DNA from: an uncultured bacterium
Lineage (GTDB): Bacteria; Fidelibacterota; Marinisomatia; Marinisomatales; TCS56
DNA: 64,000 nucleotides
Reading direction: 5' to 3'
NCBI GenBank assembly: GCA_964439935.1
Contig: CAYTPW010000007.1
Coordinates: 33,932-97,931, forward strand
Numbering within the stretch: the stretch's first letter is position 1; every line of letters begins with the position of its first letter. The notes below the pieces were generated by a model. That model made no database searches, was not told the DNA's origin, and saw only the letters and a program-made list of their open reading frames with translations. A program made the position numbers and the translations under genes. Shown piece after piece: positions 4,574-62,965 of the stretch.

Positions 4574-4625
4574 AGCTAGAAATATAATCAGGAAATCGGC
4601 TGTGTGAAATAAGAATCAGCTTTTG

Positions 4626-37534: not shown

Positions 37535-38461
37535 TCATATTTTTTTGGCAAGTACTATAATATGGCTGTTTAATTTTATAAAAAAATTGATTCTTTTTAT
37601 ATAAGCAAACAGTTTTGATTTATTTGCTTGCATTATGGAAGGTGGGTAGCCCCAATTAAACGCATATGATTTCAAAATTTTGAATCCTGCCTTTTCAAAT
37701 AAAGTAGTTATTTCGGATAATGAATAAAATCTAATATGGGGTTGTTTGGTAGTCCCTTCATTGAGTGAATATTTATTAACCAGGTCAAAATCTAAATTGC
37801 TTGCACCTTTAACCAATTTTAACAAACCCAGCAAATAGGCTACATTGTTTGTTTCTAACACACAAATTCCATCTTTTTTGGTTATTTTATTTAAGAAGTC
37901 AAATAAAAGAAATGGAGTGTGTAAATGCTCAATGACTTCCATGCAGGTAACTATATCAAATTCTAACTGGATATCGTCGGATTTGGTTGAGCTCCGAATT
38001 GAGGACTCACAATAATCCAAATTATTATAAATGAATTCAATTTTCTCATTTTGCATAAAATTGATAAATGGTAGTTTGGTTCGTATACAATTGATAGCAG
38101 GATTAGCGTCTGCATGATCTTTGTATTTAGCTAATTCATCATCTTCACATACAAGGCCTTGGCCAAACAATTTTATTTTTTCTTCTTCGAGAATAAGCTG
38201 TAATAGTCGAAGAAAAGTTCCCGGGAATGCACCGATATCCATGATCCCGGAATCGCTGACGATATATGGTTCGATGAGTTTAAATACTTCAAAATATAAT
38301 TCAATACCAGAATAGGCATAAGATCGCCGGTGTGCATAAACTCTTTCATCACAAAAAAGTTCATACATTGAGGGAGTATATTTATTGTAAACAAGCCGTT
38401 TGAATTCGTGGAAAGTCATATCATTCAATTTCTGCATCTCACGTTTGAGTTCACATGTCAA
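37535..38461 (-). CDS. class I SAM-dependent methyltransferase
   Basis: Motif I-like is IMDIGAFPGTF, and the post-II/III segment is FDIVTCMEVIEHL. It is AT-rich. The start is uncertain: TTG at 38461, with internal ATG candidates. Confidence 0.6.
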   Translation of the reverse strand: MTCELKREMQKLNDMTFHEFKRLVYNKYTPSMYELFCDERVYAHRRSYAYSGIELYFEVFKLIEPYIVSDSGIMDIGAFPGTFLRLLQLILEEEKIKLFGQGLVCEDDELAKYKDHADANPAINCIRTKLPFINFMQNEKIEFIYNNLDYCESSIRSSTKSDDIQLEFDIVTCMEVIEHLHTPFLLFDFLNKITKKDGICVLETNNVAYLLGLLKLVKGASNLDFDLVNKYSLNEGTTKQPHIRFYSLSEITTLFEKAGFKILKSYAFNWGYPPSIMQANKSKLFAYIKRINFFIKLNSHIIVLAKKI

Positions 38462-38544
38462 TTATTGCAGCGTGTTTATGTCTGGTTCGGTTAATTGTTA
38501 ATCCTGAAAGAAAAGAATTCGCCAAAAGTCTGGATTCAATATTC

Positions 38545-39345
38545 CTAATTTTTCTTAAAAATAAAAAATGAAATATGATTTGTTAGCTTCCTAAATGCAA
38601 GATCAATTGACTTTTTTACCACTTTTACCAAAAACAATTTGCTGTCGTAGCACTTTTGCAATGGACGATGAATGATCTTTATTTCATCCATTAATCCTTT
38701 TACTCCATCCGCACGTTTATGCGCGATGAATTCAAATCCACTATCAGTAAAACTATTAATAATGCTTTGATGTGAAAATGCATATTGATAAAAATTGTCT
38801 TTAGTCAACTCAATATCTTCGAGACCTGCATACATCCCCAATGCTGCCTTTGCTTTTCTTAATATAGACATGGAAGGAACAGTTAAAAACAAATAGCCAC
38901 CTTTTTTTATCACTCTGTACATTTCACTTAATATTGCATCATAGCCATCAATAAAGTGCTCTATTACACCAAGTGACCAGTATCCATCAAAAAATTGATC
39001 ACCAAACTCTAATTTTCTCACATCACCGGTGGAAACTTTCAATTCAGGCACAGCCTGGTTCACTTTAGATACAGTGTCTGCCGCAAAATCAACACCATAA
39101 ACATTGTATCCATTACTATGTAAAGTATAAACATTTTGCCCTTTACCACACCCACCTTCAAGAATTGTTGAACCTTTTGGTAAGCATTTGCTCGTATGAT
39201 ACAGAACAAACCTGTTTTTTATCTTTATATCTTCTGCAAAATCGTCACGTGAATAAAACGACCAATGAGAATCCCAAAAATCACTATCAGCCTTTTTATT
39301 CATAAACACCAGACAACGATTTTCAGGATCATAATACTTCTGCAT
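38545..39345 (-). CDS. class I SAM-dependent methyltransferase
   Basis: Motif I is ILEGGCGKGQN, followed by YGVDF and GVIEHF. The ATG at 39345 is preceded by TAGGATAGTGAAT. Confidence 0.7.
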   Translation of the reverse strand: MQKYYDPENRCLVFMNKKADSDFWDSHWSFYSRDDFAEDIKIKNRFVLYHTSKCLPKGSTILEGGCGKGQNVYTLHSNGYNVYGVDFAADTVSKVNQAVPELKVSTGDVRKLEFGDQFFDGYWSLGVIEHFIDGYDAILSEMYRVIKKGGYLFLTVPSMSILRKAKAALGMYAGLEDIELTKDNFYQYAFSHQSIINSFTDSGFEFIAHKRADGVKGLMDEIKIIHRPLQKCYDSKLFLVKVVKKSIDLAFRKLTNHISFFIFKKN

Positions 39346-39368
39346 ATTCACTATCCTATCGGCTTAAA

Positions 39369-40253
39369 CTATTTTTTCTTAATATACTGCTCTCTTTGAT
39401 TATATGGTACTTGTACTGATTCAGAAATTTTACTTTCTATATTTTTAAGATAATTCACCATGAAATGTTCTTTAAAGCTTTCGTGGGAAATATTTTTCCA
39501 AAAACTACCAGCAGACTTCCTTGTAGCATCATGCTTTTCAAGATAAACAAAATATTTTTTATCTAATAATATGACTTCTTCACCAAGGTGCTCATAAATA
39601 CCATGAATTGAATCTAATAGCGTTATCGGTGGTAAGAGTGGAACAATGTCATTTTCATCGACAACTCGTGTAATTGGTAGATAATTATAAGCCTGTACAC
39701 CTTTATTATTTGTTACTTTAGGTTGTCCAAAATTAATGGATGGTTCTAAGCTGAATCCATCTTCATGTAAATACATCATAATTAAAGTTGCTATAGCAGC
39801 TCCTAATGAATGGCCAGTAACCGAAGTTTTATATTCTTTGTTAAGATAAGGATGTACATCTGTATAAACTTTTGTAGCATCGCGATCAAATCCACGATGC
39901 GTATAAATTTTAAGTTTTTTGTTTTTTGATTGCCAGTATTCTGCATCTTCTTTAATATTTTTTAAATTTGAGGTTCCACGAATACTTAATACTTGTAATT
40001 CCTTACTTGGAAAGACTTCCAAAAAATATTGAACATCAATATCTTTTATTTCTGCAACTCGTACTGTTTGAGTAAACTTTTCTTTTATAAAGCCTTGGCT
40101 TTTATATGCGGCATTTGCTCTTTCAGCAAACCATTGCACTTTTTCAAAATCAATCTTTTTACTAGTCGCTATATCCAAGCCATTTTTAGAAATCCAAATA
40201 CAATTTGTAATTAATAACATTAATAGTATTAGAACTATATTAATTGCTTTCAT
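39369..40253 (-). CDS. class 3 lipase family protein (secreted)
   Basis: It has a signal peptide, the nucleophile elbow GHSLGAA, and a later D (VVDENDIVP). The ATG at 40253 is preceded by TAGGTTGAAT. Confidence 0.7.
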   Translation of the reverse strand: MKAINIVLILLMLLITNCIWISKNGLDIATSKKIDFEKVQWFAERANAAYKSQGFIKEKFTQTVRVAEIKDIDVQYFLEVFPSKELQVLSIRGTSNLKNIKEDAEYWQSKNKKLKIYTHRGFDRDATKVYTDVHPYLNKEYKTSVTGHSLGAAIATLIMMYLHEDGFSLEPSINFGQPKVTNNKGVQAYNYLPITRVVDENDIVPLLPPITLLDSIHGIYEHLGEEVILLDKKYFVYLEKHDATRKSAGSFWKNISHESFKEHFMVNYLKNIESKISESVQVPYNQREQYIKKK

Positions 40254-40373
40254 ATTCAACCTATTATTTTATCTATAAAAGCTCTTTGCCTAATTAATTA
40301 AAATTATGATATTGAAATATCATTAACAAATATGAAAAATATTTATCCAAAATAAAGATAAATATCAAATATA

Positions 40374-40498
40374 GTATAACGCACTAGGCTTGAGCTGCTT
40401 CTCGAAACGGACTTGCTTGGTAAATTCACTGTATCCTGCCACATCATTTTCGTAAACCAATCCCTTGTGTGTGAGTCAGCTCTAAGCCTTTGTTAGAT
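40374..40498 (-). repeat. attC-like recombination site (125 nt)
   Basis: Read on the minus strand it is ATCTAAC-aaa-GGCTTAGAGCTG ... CAGCTCAAGCC-tagtgc-GTTATAC. The ends are an inverse core RYYYAAC and a near-core GTTRRRY with one mismatch. The inner stem is 11 bp with one bulged base. The element begins 12 nt after the BNR ORF stop. Confidence 0.55.
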
Positions 40499-40510
40499 GC
40501 ACCAGCAACT

Positions 40511-41515
40511 TCAATGAGTATAAATACCACGATAAAGACCGTCATAGTAAGTACCAAGATAAACTCGATTTTCAGAATCAATTGCTAACGATCGGACTGC
40601 TATTGGGATTTTTAAACCTGAATTAACCTGATCCCAATTATGCCCATTGTCATTTGATACAAAAACACCATCACCATAGAAAATTCCTGCAAAAAGATCT
40701 CCATATTCATTGGATGCAAGCTCCTCAATGTTTTTTCCAACAAGACCTGCTTTTTCCCAGGTATTTCCGTTGTCAACTGATCTGTAAACACCATTAGTGG
40801 TTCCTGCGAATATGACACCCGAAAGACTTGTCGTAAGAGTTTTGATACTTAGCGTATCCAACCCTGCATGCTCCCAGGTTGCTTGATCGTGACTGTACCG
40901 GAAAACACCAACAGGAATACTATTCACAGCCACAGAGCCATAATATATGTTTCCCAGGGTATCATATGTAATGGCATAAAAGGATAGACTGGTCGGCGGA
41001 AGACCGGCACTAATATTCTCCCACGACTCAGCGTTGTTATGTGAGGTGAACGCTAGATAGTTATCAATCCAACCTCCACAAAATAGAACATCTTCATCAT
41101 TGATTGACATAACCTGTGGAGAACCATAAGGGGTACTTCGCGTTTCCCAAGTTGAGCCATTGTCGATTGACAAGAATGTGTTAGCCGAATGTACGATAAT
41201 TTCATCTGATGAATTAACTATAATTGATTTAACCCAGCCTGTGTTCGACAATATTTCAGACCAACTCTCCCCATCATCGGATGATTTGTAAATAGCGGAA
41301 TTGTCAGTACTGGTTCCAATGAAAATATCGGAATCAGAGTTAAAGCCTATCGCAGTAACTCGTATACCCTCAAATTCAATATGCTCCCACATAAGCGATT
41401 CATCAGGATTAGCATTATCAATTGTGTCCTCACAACTGAAAATGAATATCAACAAAAAGAGGAAAAAGGAAACTGGTTTAATTTTTATCATCAGATTCCT
41501 GGTTAATGGTTGCAT
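40511..41515 (-). CDS. BNR/Sortilin-type (Ycf48-like) beta-propeller protein, secreted
   Basis: It has five S-x-D-x-G-x-(T/S)-W-like motifs: SSDDGESW, SIDNGSTW, NNAESW, SVDNGNTW and SNDNGHNW. A signal peptide is present. The start may instead be the internal ATG (MIKIKP). Confidence 0.65.
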   Translation of the reverse strand: MQPLTRNLMIKIKPVSFFLFLLIFIFSCEDTIDNANPDESLMWEHIEFEGIRVTAIGFNSDSDIFIGTSTDNSAIYKSSDDGESWSEILSNTGWVKSIIVNSSDEIIVHSANTFLSIDNGSTWETRSTPYGSPQVMSINDEDVLFCGGWIDNYLAFTSHNNAESWENISAGLPPTSLSFYAITYDTLGNIYYGSVAVNSIPVGVFRYSHDQATWEHAGLDTLSIKTLTTSLSGVIFAGTTNGVYRSVDNGNTWEKAGLVGKNIEELASNEYGDLFAGIFYGDGVFVSNDNGHNWDQVNSGLKIPIAVRSLAIDSENRVYLGTYYDGLYRGIYTH

Positions 41516-41645
41516 CTAACGGTTTAACTCACCGAGCGTAACTTGACCTGACTTTATTCGGTTGATTAACAATTCCTGGTTCAAAATCCTCATTTTCTCA
41601 AATTGTCCAGCCCGCTATTTGCGTCCGGTGCGGTGTTTGTTAGGT
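41514..41645 (-). repeat. attC-like recombination site (132 nt)
   Basis: Read on the minus strand it is ACCTAAC-aaaca-CCGCACCGGACGC ... CGCTCGGTGAG-ttaaacc-GTTAGAT. The ends are canonical RYYYAAC and GTTRRRY with imperfect inner inverted repeats. It begins 9 nt after the SIMPL-like stop, and its last two bases are the AT of the next ORF's ATG. Confidence 0.6.
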
Positions 41646-41654
41646 GAATAATTG

Positions 41655-42320
41655 TTAATCGACTAATTGGTATTTAATTTTTAATGAAACTTTAATTTCA
41701 ACAGAATCTTGAATTCCCAATTTTCTTTCTGATGCAAGCATATATCTATCAAGATCCGTTTTGATATTCGCTGGTCCGACATTTATCATTTTGCCTATAT
41801 TTTTCCCAAATGAATTACTAATCTTTTCTGCTCTATCATTAGCGTTCCTAATGGCCAATTGATAGGCATTTAATTTATGTTCTTCAATTTTGGAAATATT
41901 AGGCTCTGTCTTAAGGATTGAACCCTGATTATTTGAAAAAATCAAATATATATCTTCAACAACAGAAATATCGGTCACTGTTACACTTACTATTTGTTTG
42001 GAATAAAAAACCTGATCGCTACAGTTTAGTTCAGATGTGACTTGCCTGGGTGAGAATTCAACACTCTCAGTATATTTTGAATGCTTTTCCAAATCCGCAA
42101 TCAAATTATTGTGCGAATCCTTATAGGCTAAATCAATGTCTTCTAGATTCTCACTTCTATGATGTAGAATGCCAATCATAATTATTTTTTCGGCTGGAAT
42201 TTTAAGTGATGCTTCACCATATATCTCAATAGTAGATATTTCCAATTCATCACTTGCACTCAAAACAACAATTAATGAACAAAGTAATAGTTTTACCCAC
42301 ATAGTATTTCTTATAATCAT
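41655..42320 (-). CDS. SIMPL (DUF541)-like periplasmic protein
   Basis: 221 aa with a signal peptide. The central AYQLAIRNANDRAEKISNSFGKNIG segment resembles SIMPL/DUF541. The RBS AGGTG lies inside the core-site repeat. Confidence 0.45.
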   Translation of the reverse strand: MIIRNTMWVKLLLCSLIVVLSASDELEISTIEIYGEASLKIPAEKIIMIGILHHRSENLEDIDLAYKDSHNNLIADLEKHSKYTESVEFSPRQVTSELNCSDQVFYSKQIVSVTVTDISVVEDIYLIFSNNQGSILKTEPNISKIEEHKLNAYQLAIRNANDRAEKISNSFGKNIGKMINVGPANIKTDLDRYMLASERKLGIQDSVEIKVSLKIKYQLVD

Positions 42321-44544: not shown

Positions 44545-45279
44545 ATGCGCAAATTAATTTCCTTATTAATAATGACCAGCATCCTATTGTGGGGAGGAGT
44601 CATGGATAAGCAATTCGAAGCTGATATATTTACTACAGCACTTGGAGATTTGAAAATCACATTTATCGGGCATGCTACTTTAATGTTCGAAATCAATGAC
44701 CGAGTGATCCATATTGATCCTGTTACCCGGGAAGCAGATTATTCACGATTACCAGCAGCTGACCTGATTCTGGTTACGCATGAGCATTTTGATCACTTGG
44801 ATCCGGAGGCACTCCAATTGATCACCAAAAAAACTACCCGATTGATTTATACCGGGAGATGTGCCAATCAGCATCCTGGTGGCACAATTATGGACAATGG
44901 TGATCAACTGGACCTGGACTGGGTGAAGATCGAGGCATTACCTGCTTATAATATTGTCAATGAACGATCTCCGGGAAGGCCTTTTCATCCCGGGGGGGCT
45001 GGTAACGGATATGTGCTATCAATTGGCGGTAAACGGATTTATGTGGCCGGTGACACAGAGAATATCCCGGAAATGAAGAGGCTTGAAAATATTGATATTG
45101 CATTTCTACCAATGAACCTACCCTACACCATGACTCCAGAAATGGTCGCCGAGGCCACCCTTGCATTTCGTCCCAATATTCTGTATCCTTATCATTTCGG
45201 ATCAACCGACCCACAGGATCTGGTTAATCTCCTTGGAGAACAAAAGGATATCGAGATCAGGATCCGCAAATTGCAGTGA
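44545..45279 (+). CDS. MBL-fold metallo-hydrolase (secreted/membrane-anchored)
   Basis: It has the THEHFDH motif, an N-terminal hydrophobic segment, and a GAGGAA RBS. Confidence 0.75.
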   Translation: MRKLISLLIMTSILLWGGVMDKQFEADIFTTALGDLKITFIGHATLMFEINDRVIHIDPVTREADYSRLPAADLILVTHEHFDHLDPEALQLITKKTTRLIYTGRCANQHPGGTIMDNGDQLDLDWVKIEALPAYNIVNERSPGRPFHPGGAGNGYVLSIGGKRIYVAGDTENIPEMKRLENIDIAFLPMNLPYTMTPEMVAEATLAFRPNILYPYHFGSTDPQDLVNLLGEQKDIEIRIRKLQ

Positions 45280-45541
45280 CGCACCATTAACAGTTTGAGC
45301 ATAGCATTTAGGATAAAATCCGATTGAAGATAAACTGTAATCAGTTTTAGAGGCAGTAAGTGGATTGTCCAAAATATCAATTCAATCCGCTCAATTCCTT
45401 TATCGGACGTACTTTGTTTAATAGCAGAAAATTTCAACGGTTGGAAAAAAAGTTTATTAAGCCGTAAATTACATTTATCGATTTGATTAAGGGTCATCAG
45501 CTGGTGATCCGAAATGAGATAATCTGCTGATGGAGGTTTGA

Positions 45542-46324
45542 ATGGAAGCGAAGATCAAACAGGCCCGTAAAATCATTTCCGGAGCCTTAGATCGGTACGG
45601 GGAGCGTATTGCAGTTGGCTGTAGTTGGGGGAAGGATAGTATAGCCCTGTTGCACCTGATTTTAGACATCAATCCTGATGTTCCGGTTTTTTCAATCCTT
45701 ACTAAATATAAACCGGCAGCAACCCTCGAATATGCACTGCAGATCTCTGAATTATTCAAGATTGATCCCAAATTTTATCTGGTCGCTGATTCGATCCCTC
45801 CAATCCTGAAGCAAAACGGCTTATCGGTCACACTGATTGATGACCGGGAATATTGCCGGCAAGCCGATCGTGCCAAACAACTATCCGGCCAAAATCTCCA
45901 CCACTTTGATCCCAAACTCTGCTGCCAGCTGTTGAAGCTAATGCCGACCCGGGTGGCCTATAACGATATGGAGCTGAAAGCCTGGTTCAGTGGACTGCGC
46001 AGCACTGAGGGACATACCAGGACATTCATTAAAATCATTGAAAAGCGCAGTGAGCGGGAAGTTAAGGTAAATCCGATTTTAAACTGGCTTGAAAATGAGG
46101 TCTGGAAGTATTTAGAAGATTATAATATCCCGCCCCATCCCTGGTATGTAAAGGATTTCGGAAATGGCCGGCGCATTCGATCCCTGGGCTGTGAACCATG
46201 CACAGTTCCAATCTATGAATATGAGAGTGAGCGTGATGGACGCTGGCGCGGAACCATGAAAATGGCCGGGGAATGCGGAATTCACACGCAGCCGCTCCGT
46301 AAAATACAGATTGATGAGGCCTGA
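45542..46324 (+). CDS. cysH: phosphoadenosine/adenosine phosphosulfate reductase family protein (CysH-like)
   Basis: 260 aa with the PP-loop-like SWGKDS motif and C-terminal GCEPCT and ECGIH motifs characteristic of CysH. The RBS is GGAGG. Confidence 0.7.
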   Translation: MEAKIKQARKIISGALDRYGERIAVGCSWGKDSIALLHLILDINPDVPVFSILTKYKPAATLEYALQISELFKIDPKFYLVADSIPPILKQNGLSVTLIDDREYCRQADRAKQLSGQNLHHFDPKLCCQLLKLMPTRVAYNDMELKAWFSGLRSTEGHTRTFIKIIEKRSEREVKVNPILNWLENEVWKYLEDYNIPPHPWYVKDFGNGRRIRSLGCEPCTVPIYEYESERDGRWRGTMKMAGECGIHTQPLRKIQIDEA

Positions 46325-47639
46325 GAACATCAATTTAGCAGCCGGTTTTCAGCCGACTCAATTTTCACTTCATTGTCAGGGGTGTGGTGAGTATCTAGAA
46401 ACCAATACAGTACTTTTAAACCATTCCGGTTGTATCGAACCGGGATTATTGCGGGCTGATTACGATCGGCAGCAGCTTACCGATCGGGGGGAAGAATCTG
46501 GTCTGTTTCGCTATGCTGACTGGCTGCCGGTCAAACACTTCTTAACCGGTTCAGGCTACCCGGTAACCTATCGTAGTAGCGGACTATCAAATCGGCTTGG
46601 ACTCAAAAACCTTTTTATAACCTTTTGTGGTTTCTGGCCAGAACGCAATGCTAACATGCTGACCGGTACTTTCAAGGAGTGTGAGGCTTACAGTGTCTGC
46701 GCCAGTATGGAACAGGACGGATCGGAAACACTGGTGGTCGCCTCGGCCGGCAATACCGCCCGTGCCTTTGCCAAGGTCTGTTCTGATAATCGTATCCCGG
46801 TCATTATTGTCGTGCCTGAACAAAATCTCCCCGCGCTCTGGTTCATTGATCAAGTCAATTCCAATGTTCGATTGGTAGTTGCCGGGGGTGACAGCGACTA
46901 CTATGACGCTATAAAGTTGGCTGATCTGATCTGCCAGCATCAAGGTTTTATGCCGGAAGGTGGTGCTAAAAATATTGCCCGCCGAGACGGTATGGGTACT
47001 ACATTGCTGTCCGCAACCGTTACAATTGGACAATTACCCGATTATTATTTCCAGGCAGTAGGAAGCGGAACCGGTTCGATTGCAGCCTGGGAAGCAGGTA
47101 TCAGATTAAGCCGGGACGGTCGTTTCGGAACAAACATTCCGCGGTTGGTTACTTCACAAAATTCGCCATTTTTACCGATCCATGATGCCTGGCAACTCCG
47201 TCAGCGGAATCTGGTTGATACCGATTCGGAGATCGCTCATCGTCAAGTAGAAGCGATCTGGGCCAAAGTATTATCCAACCGTCAACCACCCTACGGCATT
47301 CCTGGTGGTTTATACGATGCACTGGTTGATACTGACGGTCTTGTTTTGGCTGTTGATAACACTGCCGCTCGAGCTGCTGCAGAATTATTTCAGGAGTTGG
47401 AAGGAAATGATATCGCTCCGGCGGCCGCTGTTGCCCTGGCCAGTTTGATTCAGGCGGTTGAAATGAAAATAATCGATTCTGATGCGGTCATAATGCTGAA
47501 TATTACCGGGGGCGGAATCGAACGTTTGAAACGGATGCACCGAATTTACCACCTGCAACCTCACCTGACCATTCCGCGGGAAAAAATTAATCCTGACGAA
47601 ATTGAGTTAGTAGTAACCAGACTAAACAAGGAAATATGA
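46314..47639 (+). CDS. threonine-synthase-fold PLP enzyme, cysteate-synthase-like
   Basis: About 441 aa with an N-terminal Cys cluster (CQGCG...HSGC), the PLP-lysine context TGTFKE, and SAGNTARA. It overlaps the cysH-like gene by 11 nt. Confidence 0.5.
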   Translation: MRPENINLAAGFQPTQFSLHCQGCGEYLETNTVLLNHSGCIEPGLLRADYDRQQLTDRGEESGLFRYADWLPVKHFLTGSGYPVTYRSSGLSNRLGLKNLFITFCGFWPERNANMLTGTFKECEAYSVCASMEQDGSETLVVASAGNTARAFAKVCSDNRIPVIIVVPEQNLPALWFIDQVNSNVRLVVAGGDSDYYDAIKLADLICQHQGFMPEGGAKNIARRDGMGTTLLSATVTIGQLPDYYFQAVGSGTGSIAAWEAGIRLSRDGRFGTNIPRLVTSQNSPFLPIHDAWQLRQRNLVDTDSEIAHRQVEAIWAKVLSNRQPPYGIPGGLYDALVDTDGLVLAVDNTAARAAAELFQELEGNDIAPAAAVALASLIQAVEMKIIDSDAVIMLNITGGGIERLKRMHRIYHLQPHLTIPREKINPDEIELVVTRLNKEI

Positions 47640-47640
47640 G

Positions 47641-48906
47641 ATGGATCTTTTTGACAAGTGTCATTCTGATGGTGGTTACTTTGGTAAATATCGATTAGCA
47701 GGGGATAAATATTTCACCCAGCCGATTCTGGATCCCAGCCCAGGGCGTGTAATGAAATATAATGATTCCAACCAGATCATGTGGTCGATCAATAATTATT
47801 TAGGTTTGGCGGAGAATAAGGAGATCAGAGCGGCCGCGTTGGCGGCCGTGAAGGAATTCAGTACCAGCGCGCCGATGGGATCACGGATGATGAGCGGTAA
47901 TACTTCCGATCATATTGAACTGGAACGGCGTTTGGCGGAGTACTCGCAAAAAGAAGCCGCGATCTTGTTTAATTATGGCTACCTGGGAGTTCTTGGTACT
48001 ATTTCATCTCTAGCGCAGCAGGATGATATTATAATCATGGATAAACTGTCCCATGCCTCGATAGTGGATGGTACTTTCCTGTCAAATGTACCATTCCGGG
48101 TTTATCGCCATAACGATATGAACAGTCTTGAAACACTGTTAAAACGGGTTAATCGAGATCGCAAGGGTGGCCTGCTGATCGTGATTGAAGGGACTTACGG
48201 CATGACCGGTGACCTGGCAAATTTACCAGAAATCTGCCGATTGAAAGATAAGTATGATGCCCGGTTGTTCGTCGATGATGCTCATGGATTTGGAGTGATG
48301 GGTGCTGAAGGACGAGGAATTGGAGAACATTTTGGCATCCAGGATCAGATTGATATCTATTTTGGAACATTTGCCAAAGCCTTTGCCTCGATCGGTGGAT
48401 TTTCCAGTGCACCGGAGAAAGTTGTAGACTGGATTCGCTATAATGCCCGAACTCAAGTTTTTGCCAAGAGTCTGCCAATGGTCTATGTCCGGGCGTTGCA
48501 AAAAACATTGGAATTGGTCGTTAATGGATCTGATTACCGGGAGCGGATGTGGAACAATGCCAATCTGCTGAAAGATAGCTTACGGAATGAAGGATTTACC
48601 GTAGGCTGGGGTGAATCGCCAATCTGTCCGGTCTATGTAACCGCAGCCGAAGAGGAGATGGAATCCGTCGGTCGTCAAATGTCGACCTATCTACGTGATA
48701 ATGGCATTTTTGTTACCGGTGTGACCTGGCCGGTGATCCCTCTGGGTTTTATTATGTTCCGGATGATTCCGACCGCTTCCCATTTACCGGAGGATATAGA
48801 GCGCACGATAGCTGTATTTCGAACCATGCGCGAGGAACTGAATCTCGACCTTTCGATGAGCTCCGATAGCAAGCGGAAAATTAGAAAATTATACGGTAAG
48901 GAATAA
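47641..48906 (+). CDS. alpha-oxoamine synthase family PLP enzyme (BioF/Kbl/serine-palmitoyltransferase-like; candidate cysteate acyltransferase)
   Basis: 421 aa with NNYLGL, DDAHG and the PLP-lysine motif GTFAKAF. It starts 1 nt after the upstream stop. Confidence 0.65.
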   Translation: MDLFDKCHSDGGYFGKYRLAGDKYFTQPILDPSPGRVMKYNDSNQIMWSINNYLGLAENKEIRAAALAAVKEFSTSAPMGSRMMSGNTSDHIELERRLAEYSQKEAAILFNYGYLGVLGTISSLAQQDDIIIMDKLSHASIVDGTFLSNVPFRVYRHNDMNSLETLLKRVNRDRKGGLLIVIEGTYGMTGDLANLPEICRLKDKYDARLFVDDAHGFGVMGAEGRGIGEHFGIQDQIDIYFGTFAKAFASIGGFSSAPEKVVDWIRYNARTQVFAKSLPMVYVRALQKTLELVVNGSDYRERMWNNANLLKDSLRNEGFTVGWGESPICPVYVTAAEEEMESVGRQMSTYLRDNGIFVTGVTWPVIPLGFIMFRMIPTASHLPEDIERTIAVFRTMREELNLDLSMSSDSKRKIRKLYGKE

Positions 48907-54720: not shown

Positions 54721-55593
54721 ATGATGTTCGAAATTGTTGAAGCCTGTTTTATAGCTCAAGATATTAAATTGTTTAAAATTCATTCTCCACCGATCGCCCA
54801 CAAGCGAAAAGCAGGGCAATTTGTTATTATCCGGGTTACGGAAACAGGTGAGCGTATCCCATTGACAATAGCCGATTCAGATCCGGTAGCTGGAACTGTG
54901 ACAATCATTGTCCAGGGGATTGGAAAAACGACCAAAGAATTAAATACCAAAGAGGCCGGCGACACAATTTCTGATATAGTCGGTCCTCTGGGAAAGCCTT
55001 CGCATATCGATAAATTTGGTACCACGGTCAGTATTGGCGGCGGTGTTGGGACAGCGATTGCTTATCCTACAGCGGTTGCGCTTAAAAAAGCCGGCAATCA
55101 TGTGATCACAATTAATGGTGCCCGCTCTAAGGATATGGTCATTTTAGAAGCAGAAATGAAAGCCGTAAGTGACGAAGCCTACATCACCACTGATGATGGC
55201 AGTTACGGTATCCATGGATTTGTCACCACCCAATTGCAGCAGTTGATTGACTCAGGCCGTAATATTGATTTTGTGCTTGCGATCGGTCCAATCCCGATGA
55301 TGCAAGCTGTCGCCGATGTAACCCGTCCCCATGGAATTCAAACTGTCGTAAGCCTTAATCCGATCATGGTGGATGGTACCGGCATGTGTGGTGGCTGTCG
55401 GGTGCAGGTTGCGGGCAAGGTGCAGTTTGCTTGCGTTGACGGTCCTGAATTTGATGCCCACCAGGTCGATTTCACTAACCTGGTCAATCGCAATCGTGTC
55501 TACCATGAGCATGAGCAAAAATCGCTGAAAGCTTATGAACACCGTTGTCGGCTGGCTGCTCAAGCCGATCAATTGCAACATTCATCCGTTTAA
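54721..55593 (+). CDS. ferredoxin-NADP+ reductase-like FAD/NAD-binding subunit with [2Fe-2S] motif (NfnA / sulfide dehydrogenase subunit-like)
   Basis: 290 aa. The RIPLTIAD FAD-binding segment, GGGVGTA and C-terminal CGGCRV...C cluster match the PyrK/NfnA-type pattern. Confidence 0.7.
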   Translation: MMFEIVEACFIAQDIKLFKIHSPPIAHKRKAGQFVIIRVTETGERIPLTIADSDPVAGTVTIIVQGIGKTTKELNTKEAGDTISDIVGPLGKPSHIDKFGTTVSIGGGVGTAIAYPTAVALKKAGNHVITINGARSKDMVILEAEMKAVSDEAYITTDDGSYGIHGFVTTQLQQLIDSGRNIDFVLAIGPIPMMQAVADVTRPHGIQTVVSLNPIMVDGTGMCGGCRVQVAGKVQFACVDGPEFDAHQVDFTNLVNRNRVYHEHEQKSLKAYEHRCRLAAQADQLQHSSV

Positions 55594-55617
55594 CTCCCAC
55601 AAGAATTAGAGAATATT

Positions 55618-57048
55618 ATGGCCGAATTACTCCCGATTAAAGAACGGACAAAAATTTCGCGGCAGAAAATGCCTGAACAACCACCCTTGGAGCGAGCTCA
55701 CAATTTTGAAGAAGTCAACCTGGGTTTGACATCCGAGCAAGCTGTACTGGATGCCCAACGTTGTTTGCAATGTAAGAAACCGACGTGTATGGATGGCTGC
55801 CCTGTAGAGGTTAAGATCACTGAATTTCTGGAACTGGTTGTTCAAGAAGATTTTTTGGGTGCAGCTAGAAAAATCAAGGAGGATAATGTATTACCTGCCA
55901 TCTGTGGCCGGGTATGCCCCCAGGAGACCCAGTGCGAAATACTGTGTAAGATTACCAAGAATTTCGGATCAGTATCGATCGGTCGCCTGGAACGCTTTGT
56001 GGCTGACTATGAAATGGCACAGGGCGTGGAGCCTGATATGCCGCGGATTGCAAAACTCGGCCAGAAAATAGCAATTGTTGGCAGTGGTCCCGCCGGTTTG
56101 AGTTGCGCCGGTGATCTGATAAACATGGGTTATGATGTTACTGTATTTGAAGCGCTTCATGAACTGGGTGGGGTGTTGGTATACGGGATCCCGGAGTTTC
56201 GGCTACCGAAAGCGATCGTTCGGCAGGAAGTTAACAACCTGCGTAAAATGGGTGTTGAATTCAAGACTAACATGGTAATTGGTCAGACCTACACCATCGA
56301 TGAATTATTTAATGATGAAGGCTTCAGTGCTATTTTCGTTGCGGTGGGTGCCGGACTGCCATGGTTCATGAATATCCCGGGAGAAAGCTTGGCAGGAGTA
56401 TATTCAGCCAATGAATTCCTGACACGCGTTAATTTGATGAAAGCCTATAAATTTCCTGACTTTGATTCACCGGTGCTCGATTGTGCTGGAAAGAATGTTG
56501 CGGTATTCGGTGGTGGCAATGTGGCCATGGATGCCGTACGAACCGCGCTGCGTTTGGGGGCTAAAGCAGCAACTATATATTATCGGCGTTCCGAGGTGGA
56601 AATGCCCGCCCGGGAAGAGGAAATTCACCATGCTAAGGATGAAGGCGTTCAGTTTGAAATACTTACCACCCCGATCGAGTTCCTTGGTGATGATGTTGAA
56701 CGGTTACATTCCATGAAATGCATCCGAATGGAGCTGGGTGAGCCCGATTCATCGGGCCGCCGCCGTCCGGTACCAATTAAGGATTCTGAGTATATTGTCC
56801 CGATCGACATTGCTGTTGTTTCGATCGGTAATGGATCCAATCCGCTGATCAGCCAGACAACACCAGATATTGATACCAACAAATGGGGTAATATTATTGC
56901 CGATGAAGAGACGATGAAGACCTCCAAACGGGGTGTATTTGCCGGCGGTGATATCGTTACCGGTGGTGCCACGGTGATCCTGGCGTTGGGTGCCGGTCGC
57001 AAGGCCGCTCGCGGGATTCATGAGTACCTGACTGAAGGAGAATGGTAG
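55618..57048 (+). CDS. NADPH-dependent glutamate-synthase small-chain-like oxidoreductase (GltD/NfnB-like)
   Basis: 476 aa with two N-terminal Cys clusters (CLQCKKPTCMDGCP, CGRVCP), dinucleotide motifs VGSGPAGL and GGGNVAMD, and C-terminal GGD. Confidence 0.8.
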   Translation: MAELLPIKERTKISRQKMPEQPPLERAHNFEEVNLGLTSEQAVLDAQRCLQCKKPTCMDGCPVEVKITEFLELVVQEDFLGAARKIKEDNVLPAICGRVCPQETQCEILCKITKNFGSVSIGRLERFVADYEMAQGVEPDMPRIAKLGQKIAIVGSGPAGLSCAGDLINMGYDVTVFEALHELGGVLVYGIPEFRLPKAIVRQEVNNLRKMGVEFKTNMVIGQTYTIDELFNDEGFSAIFVAVGAGLPWFMNIPGESLAGVYSANEFLTRVNLMKAYKFPDFDSPVLDCAGKNVAVFGGGNVAMDAVRTALRLGAKAATIYYRRSEVEMPAREEEIHHAKDEGVQFEILTTPIEFLGDDVERLHSMKCIRMELGEPDSSGRRRPVPIKDSEYIVPIDIAVVSIGNGSNPLISQTTPDIDTNKWGNIIADEETMKTSKRGVFAGGDIVTGGATVILALGAGRKAARGIHEYLTEGEW

Positions 57049-57093
57049 TAGTAGATCAATTGTCATTGGGTACTGGTCAATAGGTATGTGATG

Positions 57094-57120
57094 AAGCCAC
57101 TCAGTTTGGGTGGCTTTTTT
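57094..57120 (+). terminator. Rho-independent terminator
   Basis: AAGCCAC-TCAGTTTGG-GTGGCTT-TTTT. Confidence 0.75.
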
Positions 57121-57310
57121 ACTGATCTTGGTGGAGGATCTTGAAGGTCACAGATCGAATTCTTGGGGAAAACCAATCATCTGAGAGAGATTTTGCTAGT
57201 TAACTATTGAAGACTAATGAGATTCGTTCGCAAATAATAATAATGCATTGTAACTTTGTTGGTTTTTAGCGATCAGAAAATTAATTATTCGACCAAGGAG
57301 AATTGAATAG

Positions 57311-58477
57311 ATGTTAACGATTGCAGTATTAAAGGATACCGCAGCTGGCGAAAAACGAGTTGCTCTGGTTCCTGAAAGTGTCAAGCGTCTCACTAAACTT
57401 GGCGCGAAAGTCCTTTTGGAAGAGGGCGCTGGTGAGCAGGCTGGTTTTACCCGGTCGCAGTATGAAGCGGCCGGGGCGATAATCGTTGCTGATTATCAAC
57501 AGTTGCTGAAAGAGGGGACGGTCTTTCTCAAGGCACAACTGGTTTGTCTATCCGATGAAGAAACTTTGAAAATGATCGATCCACTGCCCAAGGATTCAGT
57601 CATTATCGGATTCATGAATCCGTTCAAATATATCCATAATGTGGAGAAGCTGGCCGCTAAAGGTGTCACCAGCCTGGCGATGGAGCTGGTGCCTCGGATA
57701 AGCCGGGCGCAACGTATGGATGCCCTGAGTGCCATGAGTTCATCTGCTGGTTATAAAGCAGTGGTTCTAGCCGCCGCTTCTCTGAATAAATTATTTCCAT
57801 TAATGATGACCGCTGCTGGAACAATTTCACCGGCTAAAGTCCTGGTGATCGGTGCCGGTGTAGCTGGCCTGCAAGCCATTGCCACCGCTAAGCGTCTGGG
57901 AGCAAAGGTTTTCGCATTTGATACCCGCCCGGTTGTAAAAGAACAGGTGGAAAGTCTGGGTGCCAATTTTGTATCCCTGGAAACTGACTCGGAAGCGGAA
58001 AGCTCTGGCGGTTATGCCACCAAATTGTCTGAAGATTTTTATCGACATGAGCAGGTAATAATCGGCAAACATCTGCCGGATACTGATGTGGTAATTACCA
58101 CCGCCCAGATTTTCGGAAAACGGGCACCACTCCTGATTACTGTAGAGATGGTTCAGTCGATGCGCTCCGGATCGGTGATTGTCGATCTGGCAGCTGAAGC
58201 CGGTGGCAATTGCGAGCTCACTGTTGCCGAAAAAATCGTTGAGCGACATGGCGTCAGCATCTATGGTAAAACCGATTTACCGGGTTCTTTATCATACCAT
58301 GCCAGCGAAATGTACAGTCGTAATGTCACGGCCCTGCTGCAGGAAATGATTAAGGATGGTGAACTGGTAGTAGACCTTGATGATGATGTTATCAGCGGCA
58401 CACTGCTGACCCATGCCGGTAAAGTAATGAATAAACATGTACAGGATTTGTTGGATCGCGCAGAGGAGGAGCAATGA
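57311..58477 (+). CDS. pntA: NAD(P) transhydrogenase subunit alpha part 1
   Basis: 388 aa with an alanine-dehydrogenase/PNT N-domain and the VIGAGVAGLQA dinucleotide motif. The RBS is AAGGAG. Confidence 0.9.
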   Translation: MLTIAVLKDTAAGEKRVALVPESVKRLTKLGAKVLLEEGAGEQAGFTRSQYEAAGAIIVADYQQLLKEGTVFLKAQLVCLSDEETLKMIDPLPKDSVIIGFMNPFKYIHNVEKLAAKGVTSLAMELVPRISRAQRMDALSAMSSSAGYKAVVLAAASLNKLFPLMMTAAGTISPAKVLVIGAGVAGLQAIATAKRLGAKVFAFDTRPVVKEQVESLGANFVSLETDSEAESSGGYATKLSEDFYRHEQVIIGKHLPDTDVVITTAQIFGKRAPLLITVEMVQSMRSGSVIVDLAAEAGGNCELTVAEKIVERHGVSIYGKTDLPGSLSYHASEMYSRNVTALLQEMIKDGELVVDLDDDVISGTLLTHAGKVMNKHVQDLLDRAEEEQ

Positions 58478-58782
58478 TTGCCGACCTTTTAATTCAGATT
58501 TATGTCTTTGTGCTGGCCGTTTTCGTCGGCTTCGAAGTGATCACTAAAGTACCGCCAACACTGCACACGCCGCTCATGTCCGGCTCCAACGCAATTTCAG
58601 GAATCACAATTGTTGGGGCGCTGATAGCAGCCGGTTTCACCGAACTGCGGATTGCGACCTTTTGGGGTGATCTGAATGTGAGCGCAGTGCTGGGCTTCAT
58701 AGCAATCATTTTTGCTACTATTAACGTAGTTGGTGGTTTTCTGGTTACCGACCGCATGCTGAAAATGTTCAAGCGGAAGTGA
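58474..58782 (+). CDS. NAD(P) transhydrogenase subunit alpha part 2 (membrane)
   Basis: 102 aa with three to four TM segments. It overlaps the pntA stop (ATGA). Confidence 0.85.
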   Translation: MIADLLIQIYVFVLAVFVGFEVITKVPPTLHTPLMSGSNAISGITIVGALIAAGFTELRIATFWGDLNVSAVLGFIAIIFATINVVGGFLVTDRMLKMFKRK

Positions 58783-58789
58783 GGGGGTC

Positions 58790-60187
58790 ATGTTATTACA
58801 GACAGTGATTATTCCCGTGGCCTATCTGTTATCGGCCGTATTGTTTATTTTAGGACTTAAACAACTATCGCATCCTAAAACTGCTCCCCGTGGGAACCGG
58901 ACCGCTGCAGTGGGTATGCTGATTGCCATCGTGGCAACACTGATTTACAAGGATGTGATCGACTATACCCTGATCATCGCCGGAATTATAATCGGTGGTG
59001 CGATCGGTGCTTACGCTGCTAAAAAAGTGGAAATGACCGCTATGCCACAAATGGTGGCAATCTTCAACGGTTTTGGCGGCGGTGCCTCGGTTTTAGTGGC
59101 AACCGCTGAGTTTTATCGCTTGATCACCGGAATGGAGACCATTGCCGGATTCACGCTCGCTACTATCGGTTTGAGCATCATAATCGGTGGTATCACCTTC
59201 ACCGGTAGTATTGTGGCATTCGCCAAGCTGCAGGGCATTATGCGCGGGGCACCGATTTTATTCAGGGGCCAGCAGCTAATCAACAGCTTTTTATTAATCA
59301 GTACGGTCGTCCTGACGGTATTGGCCGTTCTGGTTGGAGCCAGGGCTGGTGTTTATATTCCAGCTATCATTTTTGTTGCTTTGATTCTGGGTTACATGTT
59401 CGTCATTCCGATTGGTGGTGCTGATATGCCGGTTGTCATTTCCCTGTTAAATTCCTTTTCCGGTATCGCCGCTGCCGCCACCGGTTTTGTCCTGTCTAAT
59501 AATGCCCTGATAATATCCGGCTCTTTGGTTGGAGCCAGCGGCATTATCCTGACTGATATCATGTGTAAGGGAATGAACCGGACAATCTGGAATGTATTGT
59601 TTGCCGGTTTTGGTGGTGATGATCTGGCTCCCGGTGAAGGCGCCGTTCAGACCTCGACCAAACCAGTAAAATCGTATGAGCCGGAAGATACGGTCGTGAT
59701 ATTTGAGAATGCCCAGCAGGTAGTGGTCGTTCCCGGTTATGGAATGGCTGTAGCCCAGGCTCAACATGCTGTGCATGAATTGGAAAAAGTATTGGAAATC
59801 AAGGGGATCAAGGTCAAATATGCCGTACATCCCGTAGCCGGTCGTATGCCGGGTCATATGAATGTGCTGCTGGCGGAAGCGAATGTACCCTATGACAACC
59901 TTTACGACCTGGATCAGATTAATCCTGAATTTGAGGAGACTGACGTTGCCCTGGTGATCGGAGCGAATGATGTTGTCAATCCGGCTGCTCGTCACGATAC
60001 CGCCAGTCCAATCTATGGCATGCCGATTCTGGATGTCGACCGGGCTCAGACCGTATTTGTACTCAAACGCAGTATGAATCCCGGTTTTGCGGGCATCGAA
60101 AATGAACTGTTTTATAACGACAATACGATCATGCTATTTGGCGATGCCAAAGAAACGGTTTCCCGACTGGTTGCTGAACTGAAATAA
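58790..60187 (+). CDS. pntB: NAD(P) transhydrogenase subunit beta
   Basis: 465 aa with an N-terminal polytopic membrane domain and a C-terminal NADP(H) domain (PGYGMAVAQAQH, HPVAGRMPGHMNVLLAEA). Confidence 0.9.
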   Translation: MLLQTVIIPVAYLLSAVLFILGLKQLSHPKTAPRGNRTAAVGMLIAIVATLIYKDVIDYTLIIAGIIIGGAIGAYAAKKVEMTAMPQMVAIFNGFGGGASVLVATAEFYRLITGMETIAGFTLATIGLSIIIGGITFTGSIVAFAKLQGIMRGAPILFRGQQLINSFLLISTVVLTVLAVLVGARAGVYIPAIIFVALILGYMFVIPIGGADMPVVISLLNSFSGIAAAATGFVLSNNALIISGSLVGASGIILTDIMCKGMNRTIWNVLFAGFGGDDLAPGEGAVQTSTKPVKSYEPEDTVVIFENAQQVVVVPGYGMAVAQAQHAVHELEKVLEIKGIKVKYAVHPVAGRMPGHMNVLLAEANVPYDNLYDLDQINPEFEETDVALVIGANDVVNPAARHDTASPIYGMPILDVDRAQTVFVLKRSMNPGFAGIENELFYNDNTIMLFGDAKETVSRLVAELK

Positions 60188-61481: not shown

Positions 61482-61904
61482 ATGAATAAGATTCAAAAAA
61501 ACTATCAATCAGGTTTCACGATGATTGAAATCATGGTTGTGGTTGTAATTGTAGCCATCCTAGCGGCGATTTCGGTACCGATATACGTCCAGTATGTTGA
61601 AAGTGCGCGGGCTTCTGATGCCCGTAGTACACTTAGCGCTTTATATAAAAATGCTCGAGTATTTTATCAGGACCGGGGTGAGTGGCCGTCCGATGTGGAA
61701 GACCTTCGCCGTGACGGCTATATGGAAATTGATCGCGGTACCCTGCGACAATGGACATTTGACATTTCAGGATTGGATGAAGAAATTATAGCAACCAGTA
61801 CCGATGAAATGCCCGGTGGCGCTGGCAAGGAAATCCGCTACGATCTGATTCGAGGTAAATTTATTGGTTATGGTACCTTCGGTAAGGATGCAGGAGAGCA
61901 ATAA
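61482..61904 (+). CDS. type IV pilin-like protein (prepilin N-terminal cleavage/methylation domain)
   Basis: G-FTMIEIMVVVVIVAILAAI is a class III signal. The RBS is GAGGAG. Confidence 0.8.
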   Translation: MNKIQKNYQSGFTMIEIMVVVVIVAILAAISVPIYVQYVESARASDARSTLSALYKNARVFYQDRGEWPSDVEDLRRDGYMEIDRGTLRQWTFDISGLDEEIIATSTDEMPGGAGKEIRYDLIRGKFIGYGTFGKDAGEQ

Positions 61905-61912
61905 GCGTTATA

Positions 61913-62965
61913 ATGAATATTGACGAATTATTGTCATATGCCCTCAATAGCGGGGCTTCTGATTTGCATTTAAGTGTGGGATCAATTCCCATGCTGCGGA
62001 TCAACGGTACGATGAAGCCGCTGAAAATGCCGGAATTGGTACAGGAAGACATGGAATCGATCCTGCCCCAGGTGATGAACGAAGATCAGATGCGGATGTT
62101 CAGCGAGCGAAAAGAGATTGATTTTTCCGCCAAGCTGGAAGGTAAGGGACGTTTCCGGGTCAATTTCTTTCACCAGATACGGGGACTGGCCGGTGTCTTT
62201 CGAACGATTCCCGAGATCGCTAAAACGGCCGATGAATTGCTACTGCCGCCGGTGATCAATAATTTGGCCATGCGTGACCGTGGACTGGTATTGCTGACCG
62301 GTCCAACCGGATCTGGGAAAAGTACCACGCTGGCAGCCATGGTTGATCATATTAATACTAATCGCAGCTGCCACATCATTACCGTAGAAGATCCGGTGGA
62401 ATATTTTCATCGCTCTAAATCCAGCTTGATCAACCAACGTGAACTGGGAGCGACCACTCATAGTTTTGCCAATGCCCTGCGGGCTGCTTTGCGAGAGGAT
62501 CCGGACGTGATCCTGGTTGGTGAAATGCGCGATCTGGAGACCATATCACTAGCACTAACCGCCGCCGAAACCGGCCACCTGGTACTGTCTACTCTCCATA
62601 CTTCCAGTGCTGTGAAAGCGGTGGATCGGATAATCGATATTTTCCCGGCCAGCCAGAAAGGGCAGATTCGTTCAATGATGTCGGAAAGCTTGATTGCCGT
62701 TATTGCCCAAAAGCTGCTGCCGGCAAAAGATGGAAAATCGCGGATTCCAGTTTGTGAGGTTATGATCGCTACCACGGCGATCCGGAATCTGATTCGCGAG
62801 GACCGGATCTATCAGATTCCTTCTGTGATTCAGTCTGGTGGTACCGAAGGCATGCAGTCCCTTGATCAGGATCTGCAGCGGTTGTTGGCACAGGGGATGA
62901 TCGAGCGTACGATGGCTGCTCAGATCGCCGATAATCCAAAATTATTTACCTCCAATATTATATGA
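61913..62965 (+). CDS. pilT: type IV pilus twitching motility ATPase PilT
   Basis: 350 aa with Walker A GPTGSGKST and His-box TGHLVLSTLHT. The N-terminus ASDLHL and the size are PilT-like. Confidence 0.9.
   Translation: MNIDELLSYALNSGASDLHLSVGSIPMLRINGTMKPLKMPELVQEDMESILPQVMNEDQMRMFSERKEIDFSAKLEGKGRFRVNFFHQIRGLAGVFRTIPEIAKTADELLLPPVINNLAMRDRGLVLLTGPTGSGKSTTLAAMVDHINTNRSCHIITVEDPVEYFHRSKSSLINQRELGATTHSFANALRAALREDPDVILVGEMRDLETISLALTAAETGHLVLSTLHTSSAVKAVDRIIDIFPASQKGQIRSMMSESLIAVIAQKLLPAKDGKSRIPVCEVMIATTAIRNLIREDRIYQIPSVIQSGGTEGMQSLDQDLQRLLAQGMIERTMAAQIADNPKLFTSNII

Follow-up and report, generated by a model that had tools for sequence, protein, structure and literature searches.

A three-gene operon of Marinimicrobia predicted to link sulfite formation to the synthesis of a sulfonolipid precursor

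In Bacteroidota, sulfonolipids of the capnine and sulfobacin type are made by a cysteate synthase (Cys; CapA in Capnocytophaga), a cysteate fatty-acyltransferase (CapB/SulA/CFAT) and a 3-ketocapnine reductase (CapC/KCR). Sulfonolipids are biomarkers as well as bioactive molecules, with roles in gliding motility, TLR4 signalling and the induction of rosettes in choanoflagellates. Their synthesis has been described as apparently limited to Bacteroidota (reviewed in PMC10191378), and the capnines of the Black Sea chemocline have been attributed to Bacteroidetes (PMC8311935). The cysteate synthase used by Alistipes and Odoribacter is of the ThrC-derived, so-called 'archaeal' type (PMC10191378), and a passage of PMC6286981 that cites Graham 2009 traces the first description of cysteate synthase to coenzyme M biosynthesis. 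Here, we describe three adjacent genes, ORF1, ORF2 and ORF3, in a 64-kb stretch of DNA from an uncultured bacterium (contig CAYTPW010000007.1 of assembly GCA_964439935.1; the whole stretch is referred to as the window), which are predicted to encode a sulfonucleotide reductase, a cysteate synthase and a cysteate fatty-acyltransferase, respectively. On the evidence set out below, this translationally coupled operon of a Marinimicrobia bacterium probably takes oxidised sulfur to a sulfonolipid precursor.

The three genes are encoded on the same strand (Table 1) and are closely packed, in agreement with an earlier reading of the window made from its letters alone (the sequence-only reading), which had given their positions, an 11-nt overlap followed by a 1-nt gap and a set of short motifs in all three products, every one of which was found. 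The junction sequence places the ATG of ORF2 11 nt within the end of ORF1, the TGA of which occupies positions 46322-46324, and a single base separates the TGA of ORF2 from the ATG of ORF3. For ORF2, the ATG at 46314 is that of the public gene call, while the automatic ORF list runs back to a TTG at 46311. A GGAGG Shine-Dalgarno sequence (45532-45536) precedes ORF1 and a weak AAGGA precedes ORF3; ORF2 has no recognisable Shine-Dalgarno sequence, which is consistent with translational coupling via the overlap with ORF1. Since a helicase-nuclease gene on the opposite strand ends 11 nt past ORF3, the operon comprises three genes, which are presumably co-transcribed. The products contain the Pfam domains PF01507 (ORF1), PF00291 (ORF2) and PF00155 (ORF3).

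Table 1. Window coordinates of the candidate operon and its leader
Feature	Position	Strand	Description
Leader upstream of operon	45280-45541	+	262 nt, AT-rich, 35% GC
ORF1	45542-46324	+	260 aa, predicted APS/PAPS reductase
ORF2	46314-47639	+	441 aa from ATG, predicted ThrC-derived cysteate synthase
ORF3	47641-48906	+	421 aa, predicted CapB/SulA-like cysteate fatty-acyltransferase

The assignment of ORF2 is the clearest of the three. With 500.2 bits, it exceeds the cut-off of 324.9 of the cysteate synthase equivalog model TIGR03844, whose founding member we take to be the cysteate synthase of Methanosarcinales, and it fails all threonine synthase models (30 bits against a cut-off of 167.1 for TIGR00260, and 85.7 against 303 in another comparison). 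The sequence-only reading had named a threonine synthase fold and left the choice between cysteate synthase and ThrC to profile placement; scores this far below the ThrC cut-offs rule out a threonine synthase. ORF2 also matches PDB entry 9k3c, annotated as 'Cysteate synthase', with 473.6 bits and 52.7% identity over 421 ungapped residues, and is 54-57% identical to homologues from Bacteroidales. The pyridoxal 5'-phosphate (PLP)-binding Lys121 in the TGTFKE motif is invariant in a 38-sequence family alignment. An N-terminal cysteine cluster noted earlier is indeed present (C21, C24 and C40), but these residues are not among the invariant columns. The comparison with CapA made in the same reading needs a similar correction, as ORF2 is not of the Capnocytophaga CapA type and belongs instead to the ThrC-derived 'archaeal' cysteate synthases, as in Alistipes (PMC10191378). 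ORF2 is predicted to be a ThrC-derived cysteate synthase that would form L-cysteate and phosphate from O-phospho-L-serine and sulfite.

ORF3 carries the motifs NNYLGL (51-56), DDAHG and GTFAKAF, the last containing the PLP lysine, Lys246. Its best sequence match in the PDB is 28eh, a 'Cysteate-C-fatty acyltransferase' (359.5 bits, 43% identity), followed by SulA (7u7h; 340.8 bits, 42%), and scores against the other alpha-oxoamine synthases in the PDB are lower: 254.5 bits for serine palmitoyltransferase (SPT), 223.9 for Kbl, at most 163 for ALAS and at most 151.5 for BioF. Assignment as Kbl, BioF or SPT was rejected because ORF3 misses the curated equivalog cut-offs (315 against 460 for Kbl, 307.2 against 426 for BioF and 314.8 against 640 for SPT-CFB), and those of all SPT models. 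Its alignment with CapB and SulA spans the entire protein, N-terminal arm included, and the active-site residues are kept: K246, H138, N51/N52 and R374 correspond to K251, H140, N53 and R376 of SulA, for which the roles of PLP lysine, stacking histidine, asparagine and carboxylate-binding arginine have been described (PMC9304779). Furthermore, K276 aligns with K281 of SulA, a position taken by alanine in SPT and asparagine in Kbl (FAKSLP in ORF3 and CapB, YAKSLP in SulA, FSASMT in SmSPT and FSNSLA in EcKbl); Lys281 has been described as the feature separating SulA from Spt, which has an alanine instead (PMC9304779). The SulA-type lysine is found in 6/6 orthologues adjoining cysteate synthases in Marinimicrobia and Spirochaetes. 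In a neighbour-joining tree, which is coarse as it contains two characterised cysteate acyltransferase references, ORF3 and these Marinimicrobia and Spirochaete orthologues form a sister clade to CapB plus SulA, away from SPT and Kbl. The top scores, and a lysine where SPT has alanine, answer the earlier question of placement between CapB/SulA and BioF/Kbl/SPT in favour of the former. Based on these comparisons, ORF3 is predicted to be a CapB/SulA-like cysteate fatty-acyltransferase, which would convert cysteate and an acyl-acyl carrier protein (acyl-ACP) or acyl-coenzyme A to 3-ketocapnine and CO2, and its adjacency to a cysteate synthase gene in 8 loci suggests specificity for cysteate with long-chain acyl-ACP.

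ORF1 contains the motifs SWGKDS (28-33), GCEPCT (216-221) and ECGIH (244-248) and matches PF01507 (PAPS_reduct) with 119.5 bits. Cysteines C127-C128 and C217-x-x-C220 as well as the C-terminal E244-C245-G-I-H248 are kept in 122/123 sequences of an alignment made up of the ORF1 clade and 3 references. The four cysteines C127, C128, C217 and C220 align with those of the Mycobacterium tuberculosis adenosine 5'-phosphosulfate (APS) reductase and are missing from the yeast 3'-phosphoadenosine 5'-phosphosulfate (PAPS) reductase. A [4Fe-4S] cluster is said, in work attributed to Carroll in 2005, to predict a preference for APS. The Bacillus subtilis reductase, which is bifunctional, is an exception to this rule. 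The AlphaFold (AF2) model of ORF1 (predicted local distance difference test score, pLDDT, 90.9) has as its best PDB fold match the Pseudomonas aeruginosa APS reductase with bound APS (2goy; template modelling (TM) score 0.77 over the full length), and all its top fold matches are APS or PAPS reductases. Fold and catalytic motifs hence bear out the earlier designation of ORF1 as a CysH-type enzyme. From sequence and model, ORF1 is predicted to be an assimilatory-type, thioredoxin-type [4Fe-4S] sulfonucleotide reductase and to supply sulfite, its substrate likely being APS rather than PAPS.

That this sulfite serves the cysteate synthase in particular had been proposed from gene adjacency in the window, and the distribution of related genes carries the argument further. 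Among ORF1-clade reductases of at least 49% identity, a cysteate synthase gene is located directly upstream in 39/39 Joint Genome Institute (JGI) metagenome loci with enough upstream sequence, while a phosphatidylserine-decarboxylase-family gene follows downstream in 31/32 and an acyltransferase gene in none. Outside the lineage of ORF1, its nearest relatives (49-61% identity) sit in a conserved cluster of cysteate synthase (363-411 bits against TIGR03844), reductase and decarboxylase-family protein, with a CapK/PaaK-like ligase transcribed divergently and, in one locus (L091/L146), serC beyond the ligase. SerC makes phosphoserine, the co-substrate of cysteate synthase. More distant members of the clade (41-47%) lack a cysteate synthase in the recovered sequence, most of their contigs being short. 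Together with the clusters of Spirochaetales described below, in which cysD and cysNC, and in one case cysH, lie next to the same synthase-acyltransferase pair as in the window, the 39/39 pairing supports a dedicated sulfite supply. The sulfate-reduction genes found beside the synthase in the ORF1 clade and in Spirochaetales are unrelated, which indicates non-orthologous recruitment on at least two occasions.

The metagenomic cluster (L005 6767-9406, L091 3103-8394, L093 2215-6431, L095 2900-7158, L101-L141 and L146) is widespread and apparently undescribed. Its third gene encodes a phosphatidylserine-decarboxylase-family protein of ~207 aa, and the ligase is of the adenylate-forming kind. The hosts are probably archaeal, with archaeal pilin, UbiA and intein-containing GyrA encoded nearby, and the cluster could represent a cysteate-to-taurine pathway or a pathway for a sulfonated head group. 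Other members of the ORF1 clade have different neighbours. In a Halobacteriota metagenome-assembled genome (MAG; GCA_034190245.1, L008 3855-5293), a gene for a ComB-like 2-phosphosulfolactate phosphatase lies directly upstream of a reductase gene whose product is 50% identical to ORF1, which suggests a similar sulfite supply for the phosphoenolpyruvate-dependent coenzyme M route. This pairing echoes a suggestion made for anaerobic methanotrophic (ANME) archaea and methanogens, in which APS/PAPS reductase homologues are common, many genomes lack sulfate activation and a role in organosulfonate synthesis has been suggested (PMC6286981). In a Dehalococcoidia MAG (L099 7001-9020), a reductase of the clade (45%) precedes a DUF2061 protein and a PALP enzyme of 326 aa; the latter could be CysK/CBS-like and hence possibly a CapA-type cysteate synthase. 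A 369-aa gene call (P0136) on a 1211-bp JGI contig combines PAPS_reduct and PALP domains and represents either a genuine fusion of reductase and synthase or two overlapping genes joined by the gene caller. Finally, truncated ORF1-like remnants of 75 aa (L155 1842-2069, L154 186-411 and L152 88-318) comprise only the C-terminal CxxC...ECGIH part and are 73-76% identical to ORF1; the one in L155 is surrounded by sugar-nucleotide and polysaccharide biosynthesis genes.

When species-representative genomes were scanned with the cysteate synthase profile, 80 loci were recovered. A CapB-like gene, the product of which is 60-67% identical to ORF3, lies immediately 3' of the synthase gene in the Neomarinimicrobiota locus and in 5/5 Spirochaetales/Spirochaetaceae loci, whereas none was found within 8 kb of the synthase in ~70 Bacteroidota loci, including those of Alistipes, Rikenellaceae, Prolixibacteraceae, Marinilabiliaceae and others. 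The tight synthase-acyltransferase pair is therefore a feature of lineages other than Bacteroidota, and over all data the two genes directly adjoin each other in 8 loci, which come from three lineages. In three clusters of Spirochaetales MAGs (L097/L012, L098/L013 and L084; at 6304-11571 in L097, 6298-12275 in L098 and 2093-6556 in L084), the pair is immediately preceded by cysD and a cysN/cysC fusion, and L098 adds downstream a canonical-looking CysH that is only 26% identical to ORF1. Judged from their gene content, these clusters amount to a near-complete sulfate-to-3-ketocapnine gene set in Spirochaetota.

The host of the window is not a member of Bacteroidia, as had been argued from translation signals: its DNA polymerase I (PolA) has named matches solely in Candidatus Marinimicrobia/Neomarinimicrobiota/Fidelibacterota (63-81% identity), which places the window in Marinimicrobia (SAR406)/Fidelibacterota. 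The same trio is present in a second MAG (GCA_964410945.1; L002), with identities of 65, 62 and 73% for ORF1, ORF2 and ORF3, respectively, and its flanks match those of the window (RmuC, an MBL-fold protein and a UvrD/PDDEXK helicase); in this genome, a neighbour of the trio contains a type IX secretion system (T9SS) sorting domain. In a collection of 5.8 billion proteins, only one cluster, that of the second MAG (62%), is nearer to ORF2 than the homologues of Spirochaetes and Bacteroidota (at most 58%), and the trio appears to be rare within the phylum. The GC and GC3 contents of ORF1-ORF3 are not anomalous and thus give no compositional sign of recent horizontal transfer.

Hence, we propose that ORF1 would reduce APS, or less likely PAPS, to sulfite, which ORF2 would exchange for the phosphate group of O-phospho-L-serine to yield L-cysteate. 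ORF3 would then condense cysteate with a long-chain acyl thioester, probably acyl-ACP, under loss of CO2 to give 3-ketocapnine, and enzymes encoded elsewhere may reduce and N-acylate this intermediate to outer-membrane sulfonolipids of the capnine or sulfobacin type. The production of toxic sulfite from within the operon of its consumer would provide a private supply that is independent of sulfide assimilation.

A number of observations weigh against this proposal. ORF1 narrowly misses the cut-offs of two curated models, namely NCBIfam PRK02090 (147.4 bits, cut-off 154), which the ORF1-clade members L091 (164.7) and L008 (155.3) pass, and TIGR00434 (134.1 bits, cut-off 165.1). The identity of ORF3 to characterised enzymes is no more than 42-43%, and the role of Lys281 of SulA has been judged structural, its influence on the specificity for cysteate being unproven (PMC9304779). 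The 64-kb window and the 10 kb that follow it contain neither sat/cysDN or cysC nor a gene for thioredoxin or sulfite reductase, and a tblastn search of the window with the CysD and CysNC proteins of Spirochaetes gave no match; the same region contains no assignable gene for a 3-ketocapnine reductase or an N-acyltransferase. Neither a promoter, an intrinsic terminator nor a riboswitch was found for the operon, the scans for sigma-70 promoters and terminators doing no better than on shuffled sequences. For the sole cultured member of the phylum, the lipid data comprise fatty acids only (PMC11652737).

Three other readings were considered. ORF1 could be a general assimilatory CysH that feeds sulfite reductase and cysteine synthesis, with the cysteate and lipid genes drawing on a common sulfite pool. 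It has all features of ordinary assimilatory APS reductases, and its relatives in the 41-47% range come without a cysteate synthase, albeit in recovered contigs that are mostly short. However, a housekeeping enzyme would not be expected from an 11-nt overlap indicating coupled translation with ORF2, from a region of about 74 kb that contains no other cys gene or from nearest relatives that are paired with a cysteate synthase without exception (39/39), and in Spirochaetales it is an unrelated CysH (26%) together with cysDNC that stands beside the same gene pair. We regard this reading as unlikely, although it is the chief alternative.

A second reading concerns the end product. Acyl chain length and carrier cannot be read from sequence, none of the lineages examined has a reductase or N-acyltransferase gene in the same cluster as the operon, and the acyltransferases of Marinimicrobia and Spirochaetes form a clade of their own at 42-43% identity to CapB and SulA. 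The operon could thus yield a sulfonated alpha-amino ketone, for instance a short- or medium-chain signal or a precursor of a specialised metabolite, and not a membrane sulfonolipid. Yet sulfonolipid-making Bacteroidota also scatter their pathway genes, as the ~70 loci without a nearby CapB-like gene illustrate, and ORF3 aligns with CapB and SulA over its full length, N-terminal arm and active-site residues included, so that we give a non-lipid product little credence. It is very improbable that the cysteate is destined mainly for coenzyme M-like cofactors, taurine or sulfolactate osmolytes, with ORF3 as an unrelated member of the Kbl/BioF/SPT group. Such uses have precedents in the coenzyme M context of the first described cysteate synthase and in the ORF1-clade cluster that partners the synthase with a decarboxylase-family protein in place of an acyltransferase, but ORF3 fails the cut-offs of all three groups and carries the SulA lysine, the synthase and acyltransferase genes are adjacent in 8 loci of three lineages and no ComDE or sulfopyruvate genes are found nearby. 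A pathway from oxidised sulfur to a sulfonolipid precursor hence remains the reading that we prefer.

The surroundings of the operon offer little on its regulation. A single weak sigma-70-like match in the leader (45287-45314) is no better than expected from shuffled sequence, neither the leader nor the rest of the window matches an Rfam family, and no conservation of the leader was seen against the second MAG. A 101-aa ORF on the minus strand (45192-45497) falls within the leader and is annotated as a gene in the public assembly (L001 8879-9184). It matches no Pfam family, shares sequence with the end of the MBL-fold gene and is probably spurious. Across the window, a 4-mer core of the Shine-Dalgarno sequence precedes 24/56 gene starts against a background of 11%; usage is therefore enriched, as had been noted, but moderate and not consistently strong. 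The earlier remark that no reductase gene adjoins the operon was correct. Two short-chain dehydrogenase/reductase (SDR) genes at 5051-6579, ~40 kb from the operon, match generic SDR/FabG-like models and structures only; a link to 3-ketocapnine reductase was not made, the matches being generic and no reference KCR sequence having been compared. Elsewhere, the window encodes RtcB RNA ligase and an adjacent archease on the minus strand (3143-5075), a pair of NfnAB/GltD-like oxidoreductases followed by the PntA/PntB transhydrogenase (54721-60187) and a type IV pilus cluster (pilin, PilT, PilM/N/O and secretin) that extends from 61482 to 64000 and on into L163; the 10 kb past the window end contain type IV pilus genes only. 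A segment at 38001-42000 with a GC content of 0.33-0.35, compared with a window mean of 0.44, is a possible island; its minus-strand genes encode a Lipase_3 and a SIMPL protein as well as a protein with BNR/sortilin-like repeats.

The novelty lies in the lineage, in the compactness of the operon and in the sulfite-generating step built into it. Both the chemistry and the families of the enzymes were known before; the range and architecture of the pathway are extended and the mechanism itself is not new. In a literature survey of partial coverage, no paper was found that joins Marinimicrobia with sulfonolipid, capnine or cysteate, that links Spirochaetes with sulfonolipids or that describes the Spirochaetales clusters. 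The operon and the orthologous gene pairs of Spirochaetales widen the circle of candidate sulfonolipid producers. They also bear on the origin of the sulfite used by cysteate synthase, as, both in the window and at more than 40 related loci, an APS-reductase-type gene is coupled to the synthase gene. A broader proposal, which we put forward tentatively and would hesitate to rely on, is that some Marinimicrobia and Spirochaetota also make capnine-type sulfonolipids, via a branch of sulfate reduction that has sulfite as its end point and is firmly tied to cysteate synthase. If this were true, the ORF1 clade would be a cross-domain 'sulfite-for-sulfonate' family of APS reductases that always work with a cysteate synthase, the question of the sulfite origin for biological C-sulfonation in anaerobes would be answered, and capnine or sulfono-sphingolipid signals in suboxic and euxinic waters would not be assignable to Bacteroidota alone.

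How the locus relates to described systems can be seen enzyme by enzyme. With the assimilatory [4Fe-4S] APS reductases of P. aeruginosa (2goy) and M. tuberculosis (CysH; 7lhr), ORF1 has the fold, the CC...CxxC ligands and the C-terminal ECG[IL]H cysteine in common, but its identity to them is only about 21-23% and its N-terminal half is divergent, with SWGKDS where those enzymes have SFGAED; moreover, the ORF1 gene shares an operon with a sulfonate-forming enzyme and not with cysDN/cysI. The metagenomic decarboxylase cluster holds the nearest relatives of ORF1, likewise coupled to a TIGR03844 synthase. However, in this cluster the order is reversed, with the synthase preceding the reductase, the synthase is only 35-38% identical to ORF2 and the third gene belongs to the decarboxylase family instead of encoding an acyltransferase. 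The cysteate synthase of the coenzyme M pathway in Methanosarcinales (Graham et al. 2009) is of the same family as ORF2 and has the same predicted reaction, but the cysteate formed by ORF2 is predicted to enter a lipid via the acyltransferase and not sulfopyruvate and coenzyme M. The Spirochaetales clusters contain the same pair as the window, with a synthase 56-57% and an acyltransferase 65% identical, and carry genes for sulfate activation and APS kinase, whereas the window has the reductase alone, upstream of the pair. The operon shares the first two committed steps with the Bacteroidota pathway and encodes homologous enzymes for them, ORF2 being of the Alistipes and not the Capnocytophaga CapA type (PMC10191378) and ORF3 grouping with CapB/SulA. 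In contrast to that pathway, the host is a member of Marinimicrobia, the synthase and acyltransferase genes are adjacent and coupled, in place of the separation from any CapB-like gene seen in the ~70 Bacteroidota loci, and the operon includes the sulfite-generating reductase.

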